A stretch of DNA of 64,000 nucleotides from Escherichia coli. GTDB lineage: Bacteria; Pseudomonadota; Gammaproteobacteria; Enterobacterales; Enterobacteriaceae. Shown here in pieces: positions 32,518 to 38,466 of this stretch. Where the stretch lies: the NCBI RefSeq assembly GCF_013315695.1, contig NZ_CP054353.1. One strand, 5' to 3'. Every line of letters starts with the position of its first letter. Position 1 is the stretch's first letter. A program made the translations under genes and the position numbers. The notes under the pieces were generated by a model that saw only the letters and a list, made by a program, of their open reading frames with translations, did not search any database and was not told where the DNA came from.

Positions 32518-32654
32518 CGTGTAATGGCTGCATGAAATAAACAATAAAATATAAATAACATTATCAGCCTGCTGACGGCTTGAAGAGAGTCACAGTATCT
32601 TGTGCAACATTATTGGAAAGAGTGAGGGGCGAGGTAGCGAAGCGGAAAAATGTT

Positions 32655-32760
32655 AAAAAAAAGCCCATCGTGGGAGATGGGCAAAGACTACACACAGCAA
32701 TTCGTTGTTTCACTCAGGGGATTTCCATGCTTATAAATCAATATGTTGATTTATAACCGT
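32655..32760 (-). ncRNA. rprA: RprA small regulatory RNA
   Basis: Minus-strand reading ACGGTTATAAATCAACATATTGATTTATAAGCATGGAAATCCCCTGAGTGAAACAACGAATTGCTGTGTGTAGTCTTTGCCCATCTCCCACGATGGGCTTTTTTTT matches recalled RprA, including the terminator hairpin and U-tract; located between ydiK and ydiL as in K-12. Confidence 0.85.
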
Positions 32761-32945: not shown

Positions 32946-34058
32946 TTACTTATTCGATTTCTCGATTTCGCCAAGTTCTTCGAGAATTTCTTCCGGTTGG
33001 TCCGTCGGCGGTGGGACTTCTTCCACCCACGCGGCAAAAAGACGCCAGGAAACGGCTAACAGAACCGGACCAATAAACAGGCCGATCATCCCGAAAGCAA
33101 TCAAACCACCAATAACACCAGAGAGGATCAGGATCAGCGGTAAATCGGCACCCATGCGAATTAACATTGGGCGGATGACGTTATCCAGCGTGCCAACCAC
33201 ACCGCTCCACACTAACAATACCGTTCCCCAGGTGGTATCACCGGTCCAGTAGAGCCAGATAATCGCCGGAATCAGTACCGGCAACGGTCCAAGCTGGACA
33301 AGGCAGGAGAGGATCATTAACACCGTGAGCAAAGTTGCATAAGGTACGCCGGATACGGCGAGGCCGATACCGCCAAGCACTGCCTGTACTAACGCCGTCA
33401 CCACCACACCCAGCGCCACCGCGCGGATAGCCTGTGCCGCCAGTAGCACAGCAGCATCACCGCGAACGCCTGCCAGACGGGTTGCAAAATGGCGAATGCC
33501 TTGTGCCACCTGTTCACCGCGCCAGTACAGCAGGGCACTGAAGAGAAGCATCAGCGCACAATGCACCATAAAGCGCCCGATATGCGCCGCCTGCCCAACG
33601 AACCAGGTGGTGGTGGTGCCAATATAAGGACGGACTTTCGCCATGATCGCCGTACCCCCCATATCCAGCAAGTTGTGCCAGCCTGCATATAGCTTCGCAC
33701 CAATCACCGGAATGGTATTAAGCCACGCTAGATCGGGTAACGTCATGTCACCGCTGGAAATGGCTTTAATTAGCGGACCGCTGCCATCGACAATACTGTT
33801 AACCAACAAGGCAATAGGGATGATAAACACCATCACTAATAACAGCGTCATCACCAGAACGGCGAGAGAGCGGCGGCCAAACATGATCTTTTGCAAACGT
33901 AACAATACCGGCCAGGTGGCGATAACCACTGTACCGGCCCATGCAAAGCCGAGAATAAAGGGTTGAACAATCCACAGACATGCCACAATCATGATGGCTA
34001 AAAACAGCACCGAAAGCAGAATTTGTGCGACATCCCTGGGCTGACGAACATTTACCAT
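32946..34058 (-). CDS. ydiK: AI-2E/UPF0118-family membrane transporter
   Basis: 370 aa, polytopic. Confidence 0.9.
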   Translation of the reverse strand: MVNVRQPRDVAQILLSVLFLAIMIVACLWIVQPFILGFAWAGTVVIATWPVLLRLQKIMFGRRSLAVLVMTLLLVMVFIIPIALLVNSIVDGSGPLIKAISSGDMTLPDLAWLNTIPVIGAKLYAGWHNLLDMGGTAIMAKVRPYIGTTTTWFVGQAAHIGRFMVHCALMLLFSALLYWRGEQVAQGIRHFATRLAGVRGDAAVLLAAQAIRAVALGVVVTALVQAVLGGIGLAVSGVPYATLLTVLMILSCLVQLGPLPVLIPAIIWLYWTGDTTWGTVLLVWSGVVGTLDNVIRPMLIRMGADLPLILILSGVIGGLIAFGMIGLFIGPVLLAVSWRLFAAWVEEVPPPTDQPEEILEELGEIEKSNK

Positions 34059-34229
34059 AACTACTTTTCACCTTTTTTGTGCGTCAAATCGTCGACGCGA
34101 CGTGAACACGCGAAACTCACCTGCATAATGATGAGCAATTTCAGCGGTTTTTAACAGGCCGATTCTGCCCTTAATTCTGATGGGCGTGTTAGAAAAAAAT
34201 GTGGTACAACAACTCAGGCAACACGCAAA

Positions 34230-34355
34230 CGATTTACTCGTCGTATTTCAAATTGCATGTGCTGCGGCTACGTTCGTTCACCCCAGTCACTTACTTTTGT
34301 AAGCTCCTGGAGTTCACTCGCTTGCCGCCTTCCTGCAACTCGAAATCCATAGAGT
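34230..34355. repeat. ERIC/IRU-like intergenic repeat element
   Basis: Segment ...CTCGTCGTATTTCAAATTGCATGTG...CACCCCAGTCACTTACTTTTGTAAGCTCCTGGAG...CTTGCCGCCTTCCTGCAACTCGAAAT closely resembles the recalled ERIC consensus core. Confidence 0.6.
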
Positions 34356-34444
34356 AAACAAACATCACCTTTCAGTGCGCTATTAGCAGCCTGAAAGAAC
34401 AGTGTATCGACCTACATCACAGACCGCAGGAAAGGGTCAATATA

Positions 34445-37400
34445 ATGATTCCACAGATTTCCCAGGCACCTGGCGTCGTTCAATTGGTGCTTAATTTTTT
34501 GCAAGAGCTGGAGCAACAGGGTTTTACTGGCGATACGGCGACAAGTTATGCCGATCGTCTGACAATGTCGACCGACAACAGTATTTACCAACTTCTCCCC
34601 GATGCGGTGGTATTTCCGCGTTCAACCGCAGATGTAGCGCTGATCGCCCGTCTTGCCGCGCAGGAACGCTATTCATCGTTGATCTTTACCCCCCGCGGCG
34701 GCGGCACCGGCACTAACGGTCAGGCGCTCAACCAGGGGATTATTGTTGATATGTCCCGCCATATGAACCGCATCATCGAAATTAACCCTGAAGAGGGCTG
34801 GGTGCGCGTTGAGGCCGGGGTGATTAAAGACCAACTCAATCAGTACCTGAAACCCTTTGGCTACTTTTTTGCGCCAGAACTTTCCACCAGCAACCGGGCA
34901 ACGCTCGGCGGGATGATCAATACCGATGCATCCGGTCAGGGATCGCTGGTCTATGGCAAAACGTCAGATCACGTACTTGGCGTACGCGCGGTGTTGTTGG
35001 GGGGCGATATTCTCGATACGCAACCTTTACCCGTCGAACTGGCGGAAACGCTGGGTAAATCCAATACCACAATCGGGCGAATTTATAACACGGTTTATCA
35101 ACGTTGCCGTCAGCAACGCCAGTTAATCATCGACAACTTCCCCAAGCTTAACCGCTTTCTTACCGGTTACGATTTGCGTCATGTCTTTAACGATGAGATG
35201 ACCGAGTTCGACCTGACGCGCATTCTGACGGGTTCAGAAGGGACGCTGGCCTTTATTACCGAAGCGCGACTGGATATTACGCGCTTGCCTAAAGTGCGCC
35301 GTCTGGTGAACGTCAAATATGACTCTTTTGACTCCGCACTGCGTAACGCGCCGTTTATGGTTGAGGCGCGGGCGCTTTCGGTAGAGACGGTGGACTCAAA
35401 AGTGCTCAACCTTGCACGGGAAGATATTGTCTGGCATTCCGTCAGTGAACTGATTACCGATGTTCCTGATAAAGAGATTCTCGGGCTGAATATTGTTGAA
35501 TTTGCCGGCGATGATGAGGCGCTGATTGACGAGAGGGTAAGTGCACTCTGTGCGCGACTGAATGAGTTAATCGCCAGCCAGCAAGCAGGTGTGATCGGCT
35601 GGCAGGTATGCAGTGAGCTGGCAGGTGTTGAACGTATCTATGCGATGCGCAAAAAAGCTGTCGGCCTGCTCGGTAATGCCAAAGGAGCAGCCAAGCCAAT
35701 TCCGTTTGCTGAGGATACCTGCGTACCGCCGGAACATCTGGCCGATTATATTGCTGAATTTCGCGCGCTGCTCGACAGCCACGGCTTAAGCTACGGTATG
35801 TTCGGTCACGTCGACGCAGGTGTCTTGCACGTCCGTCCTGCGCTGGATATGTGCGATCCGCAACAAGAGATTTTGATGAAGCAAATCTCTGATGACGTAG
35901 TGGCGCTTACCGCGAAATACGGTGGTTTGTTGTGGGGCGAACACGGCAAAGGTTTTCGTGCCGAATACAGCCCGGCGTTTTTCGGTGAGGAACTTTTTGC
36001 AGAACTGCGTAAAGTGAAAGCGGCATTTGACCCGCATAACCGACTCAACCCAGGGAAGATTTGCCCGCCAGAAGGTCTCGATGCGCCGATGATGAAAGTG
36101 GACGCGGTGAAGCGTGGCACATATGACCGACAGATCCCCATCGCGGTACGCCAGCAGTGGCGCGGGGCAATGGAGTGTAACGGCAACGGTTTATGCTTCA
36201 ACTTTGATGCCCGTAGTCCGATGTGTCCGTCGATGAAGATCACCCAGAACCGGATTCATTCACCGAAAGGGCGCGCAACGCTGGTGCGTGAATGGCTGCG
36301 TTTGTTGGCGGATCGCGGCGTTGACCCACTCAAACTGGAACAAGAACTGCCTGAATCCGGCGTCAGTTTACGGACGTTAATTGCCCGCACGCGCAATAGC
36401 TGGCATGCGAATAAAGGCGAATACGACTTCTCACACGAAGTCAAAGAGGCAATGTCGGGCTGTCTGGCCTGTAAAGCGTGTTCGACCCAGTGCCCCATCA
36501 AAATTGATGTGCCGGAGTTTCGCTCTCGTTTTCTGCAGCTCTATCACACCCGTTATTTACGCCCGCTTCGTGACCACCTCGTTGCTACGGTCGAGAGCTA
36601 CGCACCGCTGATGGCACGCGCGCCGAAAACCTTTAACTTCTTCATTAACCAGCCGCTGGTGCGCAAACTCTCGGAAAAACATATCGGCATGGTTGATTTG
36701 CCACTGCTGTCAGTCCCCTCGCTACAACAACAAATGGTGGGGCATCGCTCGGCGAATATGACGCTGGAACAGCTTGAAGCTCTCAATACAGAGCAGAAAG
36801 CGCGCACGGTGTTGGTGGTGCAGGACCCCTTTACCAGCTATTACGATGCGCAAGTGGTGGCGGATTTTGTCCGTCTGGTTGAAAAATTAGGTTTCCAGCC
36901 TGTGTTACTGCCATTTTCGCCAAATGGCAAAGCCCAGCATATCAAAGGCTTTCTTAATCGTTTTGCGAAGACGGCGAAAAAGACGGCGGATTTCCTCAAC
37001 CGTATGGCGAAGCTGGGGATGCCAATGGTGGGCGTCGATCCGGCGCTGGTACTTTGTTATCGCGATGAATATAAACTGGCGCTGGGCGATGAACGTGGCG
37101 AGTTTAACGTCTTACTGGCGAATGAATGGCTGGCAAGCGCACTTGACTCACAGCCAGTGGCTACAGTCAGCGGTGAATCATGGTATTTCTTTGGTCACTG
37201 TACCGAAGTTACCGCTTTGCCGGGCGCGCCAGCACAATGGGCCGCGATATTTGCCCGTTTTGGCGCGAAACTGGAAAATGTCAGCGTGGGTTGCTGCGGC
37301 ATGGCAGGGACTTACGGACATGAAGCGAAAAACCATAAAAATTCGCTCGGGATCTATGAGTTATCCTGGCATCAGGCGATGCAGCGACTGCCGCGTAATC

Positions 37401-37501
37401 GCTGTCTGGCGACCGGATATTCCTGCCGTAGCCAGGTAAAACGGGTCGAAGGCACGGGGGTACGCCATCCTGTGCAGGCTTTACTGGAGATTATTAAATG
37501 A
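34445..37501 (+). CDS. ydiJ: FAD-linked oxidoreductase with C-terminal Fe-S domain (D-2-hydroxyglutarate dehydrogenase-like)
   Basis: 1018 aa; FAD-binding PCMH domain, Cys-rich C-terminus. Confidence 0.95.
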   Translation: MIPQISQAPGVVQLVLNFLQELEQQGFTGDTATSYADRLTMSTDNSIYQLLPDAVVFPRSTADVALIARLAAQERYSSLIFTPRGGGTGTNGQALNQGIIVDMSRHMNRIIEINPEEGWVRVEAGVIKDQLNQYLKPFGYFFAPELSTSNRATLGGMINTDASGQGSLVYGKTSDHVLGVRAVLLGGDILDTQPLPVELAETLGKSNTTIGRIYNTVYQRCRQQRQLIIDNFPKLNRFLTGYDLRHVFNDEMTEFDLTRILTGSEGTLAFITEARLDITRLPKVRRLVNVKYDSFDSALRNAPFMVEARALSVETVDSKVLNLAREDIVWHSVSELITDVPDKEILGLNIVEFAGDDEALIDERVSALCARLNELIASQQAGVIGWQVCSELAGVERIYAMRKKAVGLLGNAKGAAKPIPFAEDTCVPPEHLADYIAEFRALLDSHGLSYGMFGHVDAGVLHVRPALDMCDPQQEILMKQISDDVVALTAKYGGLLWGEHGKGFRAEYSPAFFGEELFAELRKVKAAFDPHNRLNPGKICPPEGLDAPMMKVDAVKRGTYDRQIPIAVRQQWRGAMECNGNGLCFNFDARSPMCPSMKITQNRIHSPKGRATLVREWLRLLADRGVDPLKLEQELPESGVSLRTLIARTRNSWHANKGEYDFSHEVKEAMSGCLACKACSTQCPIKIDVPEFRSRFLQLYHTRYLRPLRDHLVATVESYAPLMARAPKTFNFFINQPLVRKLSEKHIGMVDLPLLSVPSLQQQMVGHRSANMTLEQLEALNTEQKARTVLVVQDPFTSYYDAQVVADFVRLVEKLGFQPVLLPFSPNGKAQHIKGFLNRFAKTAKKTADFLNRMAKLGMPMVGVDPALVLCYRDEYKLALGDERGEFNVLLANEWLASALDSQPVATVSGESWYFFGHCTEVTALPGAPAQWAAIFARFGAKLENVSVGCCGMAGTYGHEAKNHKNSLGIYELSWHQAMQRLPRNRCLATGYSCRSQVKRVEGTGVRHPVQALLEIIK

Positions 37502-38196: not shown

Positions 38197-38419
38197 TCCT
38201 GACTTAATGCCGCAAGTTCGCCATATCGACCTGGATTAACCTCCGTCCAGGTTCGATGGACTTCTTAATACTGCTTATCTACCCGCCTGATATTGTTCAA
38301 AAATAATACTAATCGCAGTTTGTGTTAAAACGGTGGGTTAGCTTTATGAGATTATTCTTATCGCCCCTTCAAGAGCTAAGCCACTGAGAGTGCCGGAGAT
38401 AAGCGCCGGATGGGGTAGA

Positions 38420-38466
38420 AACCCTTAAGCCTGTGATGCACAGACTTAAGGGTTTTCTTATTTCTG
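38420..38466 (+). terminator. Strong intrinsic terminator in the ydiH-sufA interval
   Basis: Perfect 10-bp stem AACCCTTAAG/CTTAAGGGTT with 15-nt loop, followed by TTCTTATTTCTG. Confidence 0.6.

Follow-up and report, generated by a model that had tools for sequence, protein, structure and literature searches.

An ERIC element in the 5' leader of ydiJ, polymorphic among strains of Escherichia coli

The window, i.e. the whole 64-kb stretch of Escherichia coli DNA that was analyzed, contains a divergent gene pair, ydiK on the minus strand and ydiJ on the plus strand. The preliminary description, made from the letters alone, had located a copy of the ERIC repeat in the intergenic region between these two genes, and both the open reading frames and the RefSeq annotation agree with this assignment. 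The genes were named from matching RefSeq E. coli genomes. They are flanked by the small RNA genes RprA and rydB, as expected for that part of the E. coli chromosome, and over 901 nt around the site, E. coli strain MS 21-1 matches the window without any difference (100% identity). The RefSeq record of strain K-12 (NC_000913.3) carries no annotation of the ERIC copy in the ydiJ leader. The locus comprises the following features.

32653-32760, minus strand: RprA small RNA gene (Rfam, above the gathering score).
32946-34058, minus strand: ydiK coding sequence, AI-2E family transporter, 370 aa (list of open reading frames).
34202-34218, plus strand: main ydiJ promoter, with an extended -10-like motif TGgTACAAC (34202-34210) and a start G at 34218 (Kim et al., 2012; 49 reads).
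34223-34238, minus strand: PurR-box-like 16-mer AGTAAATCGTTTGCGT, at +6 to +21 relative to the ydiJ start (position weight matrix score of 18.4 bits).
34233-34359, plus strand (orientation of the published consensus, TATAC...): ERIC/IRU element, 127 nt (alignment, inverted arms, fold, multiple copies).
34281-34312, plus strand: central conserved core hairpin of ERIC (CCCCAGTCACTTAC-TTTT-GTAAGCTCCTGGAG), identified from the fold and overlapping the ERIC2 primer site (34275-34296, minus strand).
34360-34420, plus strand: single-copy companion segment of about 60 nt, found only together with ERIC (4255 of 5426 genomes, one place each).
34367, plus strand: second ydiJ 5' end (25 reads), located 8 nt beyond ERIC, the following hairpin beginning 2 nt further on.
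34429-34447, plus strand: Shine-Dalgarno sequence (GGAAAGGG) and ATG of ydiJ (sequence, alignment of alleles).
34445-37501, plus strand: ydiJ coding sequence, D-2-hydroxyglutarate dehydrogenase, 1018 aa (list of open reading frames).
38363-38423, plus strand: rydB small RNA gene (Rfam, above the gathering score).

To identify the repeat, two 127-nt RU-1 sequences (Delihas, 2007; PMC2759123, Table 1a) were locally aligned with positions 34200-34400 of the window. Positions 3-125 of the Salmonella sequence SeRU-1 aligned with 34235-34356 (107 of 123 sites identical, 87.0%), and positions 3-113 of the E. coli ERIC consensus aligned with 34235-34344 (97 of 114, 85.1%). Both alignments were colinear, nearly full-length, and confined to the plus strand. 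The match to the ERIC consensus claimed in the preliminary description, for which an alignment over the full length of the consensus had been proposed as a check, was thus confirmed. Extension of the alignment to the consensus ends placed the element at 34233-34359. The coordinates initially proposed, 34230-34355, therefore designated the right place, with ends that were 3 to 4 nt off on each side. From these alignments, the identification of the sequence as a full-length and ordinary ERIC/IRU element, one copy of a non-coding and imperfectly palindromic repeat found in Enterobacteriaceae, is nearly certain. The family was reportedly described by Sharples and Lloyd in 1990 and by Hulton et al. 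in 1991, under the names of ERIC, IRU, and RU-1. The copy upstream from ydiJ is present in K-12 and does not represent a new kind of element, since ERICs have been known since 1990-91; genome-wide surveys of the family should already include it.

The sequences of primers ERIC2 and ERIC1R were also used as queries. ERIC2 matched the minus strand at 34275-34296 (21 of 22 positions; 0 matches in 100 shuffles). ERIC1R had no ungapped match within 3 mismatches in this copy, because its site is degenerate owing to a 1-nt deletion, in addition to substitutions, revealed by the alignment to the consensus. The terminal arms of the element, 34233-34257 and 34334-34358, form inverted repeats of 25 nt each that are 76% complementary. 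A 131-nt query covering the element matched 5,425 of 5,426 complete E. coli genomes, with ERIC-like sequence in 54,889 places (median of 11 per genome) and a blastn E-value of 9e-60 for identical copies of the region in other genomes. No second ERIC copy was found within the 64-kb window.

ERIC has been considered as a MITE-like repeat with a TA dinucleotide at both termini and duplication of the target (PMC3184786). At this locus, the ends of the element read GATT/TACTCG and GAGTA/AAC, the terminal TA of the consensus being replaced by TT on the left and by AA on the right. The ancestral site, GATTAATC, contains a TA. The terminal TA of the consensus is not intact, and the indel, which includes more than ERIC alone, does not represent a clean insertion of ERIC. 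In other respects, the element resembles the members of the ERIC, IRU, or RU-1 family: it is 127 nt long, has 85-87% identity to published sequences, contains the central inverted repeat, occurs in multiple copies, varies between strains, and is both extragenic and transcribed, as it lies between ydiK and ydiJ and downstream from the K-12 ydiJ start. It differs from a typical ERIC by the TT/AA termini, the 1-nt deletion in the ERIC1R region, and the segment of about 60 nt to which it is joined.

The preliminary description had stated that ERIC copies are variably present between strains, and this holds true at ydiJ. Of the 5426 complete genomes of E. coli, 4255 carry the filled allele, and the uninterrupted empty junction was found in 13 of 60 genomes sampled at even spacing, including LF82 and MP1. 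In agreement with these counts, the best match to the element was at least 95% identical in approximately 4,250 E. coli records and only 80-90% identical in approximately 1,200 others, in which it corresponds to a different ERIC copy located elsewhere. The empty site thus persists in about 22% of complete E. coli genomes and the ERIC is dispensable. We take LF82, MP1, and the ST131 strain uk_P46212 to belong to phylogroup B2. The empty allele of uk_P46212 has an intergenic region of 213 nt, versus 386-388 nt for the filled allele, and positions 34235 to approximately 34414 of the window are replaced in this empty allele by approximately 7-10 nt (AATCTCT...). The ancestral sequence picks up again approximately 27-30 nt upstream from the ATG of ydiJ. 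Users of ERIC-PCR and of pangenomes should be aware that this ERIC copy is lineage-dependent within E. coli.

The ancestral state was deduced from 80 ydiK loci of other species, in 79 of which the length of the ydiK-ydiJ intergenic region could be measured. In 47 of these, it fell within 194-213 nt, and seven Citrobacter genomes as well as Escherichia sp. MOD1-EC7003 have a length of precisely 213 nt. The junction sequence of the latter genomes is homologous to that of the empty E. coli allele, from which we conclude that the empty state came first and that the allele of 386-388 nt is derived. The filled allele is common to E. coli, E. albertii, E. whittamii, Escherichia sp. E1V33, and SCPM-O-B-8794, a divergent lineage designated as E. 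coli. According to these sequence comparisons, the filled allele is an old insertion that is still segregating.

The companion segment located immediately downstream from ERIC was detected about as often among the genomes as ERIC itself at this place. It contains a hairpin (CTTTCAG...CTGAAAG at 34369-34397) and is bracketed by a direct repeat, ACATCAC, recognized by eye at 34362-34368 and 34414-34420. The allele of the window harbors a 2-nt deletion (GC) in the loop of this hairpin (position 34385) and a G to A substitution at 34252, which converts a G-C pair of the ERIC stem to A.C on the plus strand (U.G on the minus strand); both differences are absent from seven other aligned Escherichia alleles. 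The companion segment had no second copy in the 5426 E. coli genomes and no similarity to sequences in the 80 related loci outside Escherichia or elsewhere in the 64-kb window. The presence of this segment, for which these comparisons revealed no source, argues against a simple account based on the insertion of ERIC alone.

Transcription of the region was assessed from the 5' ends mapped in K-12 MG1655 in exponential phase by 5'-RACE sequencing of exonuclease-enriched RNA (Kim et al., 2012; PMC3415461, Table S1). This study reports ydiJ 5' ends at 1766938 (49 reads, 229-nt untranslated region) and at 1766789 (25 reads, 80-nt untranslated region), i.e. modest numbers of reads obtained for one strain in a single growth condition. 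The 51-nt strings upstream from these ends were mapped onto the window, where they designate position 34218 (exact match) and position 34367 (one substitution). The first start is located 8 nt downstream from the motif TGgTACAAC. The resulting 5' untranslated region is 227 nt long in the window, 229 nt in K-12, and approximately 54 nt in the empty allele. Since the main ydiJ start lies upstream from the insertion, ERIC is co-transcribed as nucleotides +16 to +142 of the ydiJ mRNA, which carries the orientation of ERIC that forms the weaker of the two RNA hairpins. The 5' end at 34367 may originate from a weak outward promoter borne by ERIC or from processing, if the processed end escaped the exonuclease. 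A relaxed search identified no convincing -35 and -10 motifs upstream from 34367, and a scan of positions 33950-34550 for consensus promoters and terminators detected no sigma-70 site and a single terminator-like site, inside ydiJ. On the ydiK side, all mapped 5' ends are weak (2 to 4 reads), the proximal one being at 34120 (2 reads). ERIC is upstream from this start and is therefore not part of the corresponding ydiK transcript. The data of Adams 2021, of Mendoza-Vargas 2009, and for Shigella M90T contained nothing useful for the ydiK-ydiJ region. Literature searches associating ERIC with ydiJ, or bearing on the ydiJ promoter, returned nothing on this element.

The preliminary description had also mentioned that ERIC copies can affect mRNA stability. 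As a statement on the family, this is supported by the literature: ERICs have been found to alter mRNA decay in Yersinia operons, according to the summary of De Gregorio 2005 given in PMC3184786. The statement could also apply here, because the K-12 start-site data place ERIC inside the ydiJ 5' untranslated region. The Yersinia ERICs are likewise co-transcribed, and in both cases the hairpin could create or mask RNase sites; as summarized in the same source, they differ from the ydiJ copy in being located downstream of genes or between cistrons, whereas the latter is in a 5' untranslated region.

Insertion of ERIC also modified the sequence of a candidate operator. An in vivo PurR-binding region has been reported at 1,766,545-1,767,225 in K-12 by ChIP-chip; it was designated ydiJ/ydiK and no motif was assigned to it (Cho et al., 2011; PMC3159470, Table 1). 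A later paper interprets this region as indicating regulation of ydiK by PurR. We built a position weight matrix from the 28 ChIP-defined sites of Cho et al. (2011), with which known PurR sites score 8.4-24.6 bits in leave-one-out analysis. The best match in the whole 64-kb window was the 16-mer at 34223-34238, with 18.4 bits; the next-best matches were at 795-810 (14.7 bits) and 20068-20083 (14.1 bits). Most Enterobacteriaceae have conserved the half-site directly to the left of ERIC, ACGCAAACGAT, whose spacing from the start codon of ydiK hardly varies. The last 6 nt of the 16-mer (34233-34238) are the terminus of ERIC and account for the higher score; in the empty allele of E. coli, the site reaches 12.3 bits. 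The candidate shares with established PurR operators (PUR box ACGNAAACGTTTGCNT; Cho et al., 2011) its score, its location within a bound region, and its position downstream from a start site. It differs from them in that half of it is derived from a repeat and in that no motif was assigned there in the original study. The positions +6 to +21 would be plausible for repression of ydiJ by PurR; we infer, from the sequence and the ChIP-chip region, both the binding of PurR to 34223-34238 and an effect of ERIC on this binding. The 16-mer thereby provides a candidate operator for the PurR peak published without a motif at ydiJ/ydiK.

The site directly downstream from the half-site has received ERIC-family elements in other genera. 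In Enterobacter sp. JUb54, the half-site is directly followed by a full ERIC oriented as in E. coli and by a partial inverted one, and in Enterobacter genomosp. O by a full ERIC in the opposite orientation. A contig labeled 'Chryseobacterium sp. 18061' contains two ERICs, one directly after the half-site and the other near the ydiK end. In Citrobacter amalonaticus S646, an ERIC-related element is located just before the corresponding GCAAACGAT sequence. Reading of the Raoultella planticola sequence, in which BLAST detected no match, suggests an ERIC-like element with a replaced center after the half-site. Sister species of the genomes with ERIC inserts have empty sites. Among all the loci fetched, 12 of 14 ERIC matches fell within the ydiK-ydiJ intergenic region, corresponding to approximately five independent events. 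These comparisons indicate that ERIC-family elements inserted independently at the same spot in several genera, which may be due either to a target preference or to mere permissiveness of the site. Unrelated inserts of approximately 50-90 nt, some with strong hairpins, also follow the half-site in Salmonella arizonae and diarizonae (loci L018 and L022), in Kluyvera (L026 and relatives), and in Citrobacter (L011, L025, and L027). Depending on the genus, 23-235 nt separate the half-site from the ydiJ ATG, whereas the length on the ydiK side is almost constant. As to the Chryseobacterium contig (CACSKA010000003.1; L053), the starts of its ydiK and ydiJ products are 74-86% identical to the E. coli proteins and of the aligned intergenic regions, the one from Citrobacter sp. 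18056 resembles its own most closely. This record is probably mislabeled or contaminated.

The history of the filled allele within Escherichia was examined by comparison with E. albertii. ERIC differs between the two species at 5 of 125 sites (4%), versus 213 of 526 4-fold degenerate sites (40.5%) in the flanking genes (Fisher p = 3e-18). Divergence was not uniform in the genes themselves, since the proportion of 4-fold sites that differ is 15% in the 60 initial codons of the two genes, versus 43.8% in the remaining codons (p = 1e-5). Low divergence near the gene starts was also observed in comparisons with three other Escherichia lineages and was not seen in comparisons with Citrobacter, Salmonella, and Enterobacter (44-47% versus 53-61%). 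The simplest reading of low divergence at both gene starts, limited to Escherichia, is spread of the allele by recombination. The data suggest that a patch of approximately 0.7-0.8 kb around the intergenic region traces back to a later common ancestor than do the gene bodies, and the filled allele probably moved between Escherichia lineages by homologous recombination. Some constraint on ERIC itself could add to this effect, as its 4% divergence is still below the 15% of the adjacent synonymous sites.

Together, these results are best explained by an ordinary ERIC insertion that is co-transcribed in the ydiJ leader, segregates in E. coli, and is common to Escherichia via recombination. We assign to this explanation a probability of about 0.9. 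The element inserted in the ydiJ leader directly 3' of the conserved PurR-box half-site, approximately 30 nt upstream from the ydiJ start codon, its terminus replacing the distal half of the PurR-like operator. The insertion lengthens the leader from approximately 54 to approximately 227 nt, and the long leader hairpin could affect decay or processing of the ydiJ mRNA, a possible origin of the 5' end at 34367. The identity, anatomy, K-12 transcriptional context, and distribution of the element are established, while effects on the host would most likely be cis-acting and modest; the 22% or so of strains that lack the ERIC show it to be dispensable. As one more ERIC copy, the element is of little importance and the details of the locus are of modest value. 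The small additions are its placement in a leader, the co-varying companion segment, the completion of a PUR box, the recombination patch, and the repeated insertion of ERICs at one site. Of these, the preliminary description had mentioned neither the position in the ydiJ leader nor the companion segment nor the adjoining PurR-box-like site. The natural pair of alleles, with ydiJ leaders of approximately 54 and 227 nt, is suited to testing the effect of an ERIC in a 5' untranslated region.

Whether the insertion has any consequence is a matter on which the evidence is divided. The element may be a neutral relic, passively inserted at a permissive site between the operator and the Shine-Dalgarno sequence and without consequence for ydiJ or ydiK, a reading to which we give even odds. 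Neutrality would agree with the polymorphism and dispensability of the element, with the many unrelated inserts accepted by the site and the 23- to 235-nt range of the spacing between box and ATG, and with the lack of covariation among orthologous alleles. It is less easily reconciled with the divergence from E. albertii, which is lower in ERIC (4%) than in neighboring synonymous sites (15%). Moreover, the likely operator was changed and the length of the leader quadrupled, so that some quantitative effect is hard to avoid.

We consider it unlikely, although deserving of discussion, that the element is a domesticated module, in which selection would keep ERIC with its companion segment, the terminus would serve as the distal PurR half-site, and the hairpin or the right arm of ERIC (CCUUCCUGC) would tune the stability of the ydiJ mRNA or the access of ribosomes. 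The right arm is 80% complementary over 15 nt to the Shine-Dalgarno region of ydiJ, with which it is paired in the minimum free energy fold of the whole leader. This pairing is favorable to domestication, but a complementarity of 80% over 15 nt is unremarkable in 386 nt, and the predicted probability that the Shine-Dalgarno sequence is unpaired differs little between the leaders (0.40 versus 0.51), representing a small change in accessibility. The divergence of 5 of 125 sites in ERIC, against 213 of 526 4-fold degenerate sites and also below the adjacent 15%, would fit conservation by selection; it is, however, largely attributable to the recombination patch, which covers synonymous sites of both gene starts. 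Completion of the box by the ERIC terminus (18.4 versus 12.3 bits) in a region bound by PurR in vivo in K-12 is a further point in favor of domestication, as is the presence of ERIC-family inserts at the same spot in several genera. Against these are set the fact that Cho et al. assigned no PurR motif at this region, the absence of the element from about 22% of E. coli genomes and from most genera, and the absence of compensatory changes among orthologs. Co-option may be formulated more broadly. The ydiJ leader 3' of the PurR half-site would be a recurrent landing site for ERICs throughout Enterobacteriaceae, and the Escherichia insertion would have been co-opted and spread by recombination because it was advantageous, which we regard as doubtful. 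The same low expectation applies jointly to the mechanism that would accompany it, namely completion of a PurR operator by the six terminal bases and modulation of ydiJ mRNA processing or translation by the hairpin and CCUUCCUGC.

The folding of the element does not single out this locus. As a plus-strand RNA, ERIC is predicted to form one long imperfect hairpin (-35.9 kcal/mol; z = -3.6), and the minus-strand RNA is predicted to be more stable (-58.3 kcal/mol; z = -7.3). The two published ERICs used for alignment likewise fold better as their reverse complements (-61.8 and -53.6 versus -45.2 and -40.5 kcal/mol). The stronger fold of the reverse complement is a property of the whole ERIC family and not of the ydiJ locus. 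Alignment of this copy with 12 other ERICs, among them independent copies from other genera, yielded a conserved hairpin, 9 of 28 pairs displaying compensatory double changes. Among eight orthologous Escherichia alleles, no covariation was detected on either strand, substitutions breaking predicted pairs about as often as they kept them. Covariation thus provides no evidence that an RNA structure is under selection in the ydiJ leader.

An independent small RNA or antisense gene on the minus strand, similar to V_AS5 or Ysr49, is very unlikely. Rfam, which contains no ERIC family, reported minus-strand matches to V_AS5 (RF02818; 34237-34359; 38.3 bits, E = 1.6e-5) and to Ysr49 (RF02766; 34194-34359; 32.3 bits), and the K-12 data include a minus-strand 5' end inside ERIC at 34288 (Kim et al., 2012). 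These matches and this 5' end, together with the strong minus-strand fold, speak in favor of such a gene. However, the 5' end is supported by 3 reads only, no terminator was found on the minus strand in the scan of positions 33950-34550, the fold is shared by ERICs in general, and the similarity to V_AS5, the sole alignment displayed, is the ERIC core itself. Membership of either family was rejected since the gathering thresholds (96 bits for V_AS5 and 95 bits for Ysr49) are much higher than the scores obtained. The Vibrio RNA V_AS5 has the ERIC core in common with the element, on the minus strand, whereas the resemblance to the Yersinia RNA Ysr49 consists of the minus-strand match extending to 34194.

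Finally, a small protein gene is extremely improbable: the 52-codon open reading frame at 34199-34357 (plus strand), corresponding to the RU-1 reading frame discussed by Delihas (PMC2759123), was rejected as a by-product of the repeat sequence, its ATG (34199) being upstream from the mapped start at 34218 and hence missing from the main transcript, with no Shine-Dalgarno-like sequence evident by eye upstream from this ATG.

Other observations concern the ydiK end of the locus. In E. coli, rprA is located just downstream from ydiK, and ERICs were found downstream from ydiK in Buttiauxella izardii (L070, 3924-4042) and Yersinia aldovae (L084, 3622-3743). A 5' end with 91 reads was mapped inside ydiK, upstream from rprA (1767949 in NC_000913.2), and was assigned to ydiL with an untranslated region of 690 nt (Kim et al., 2012).
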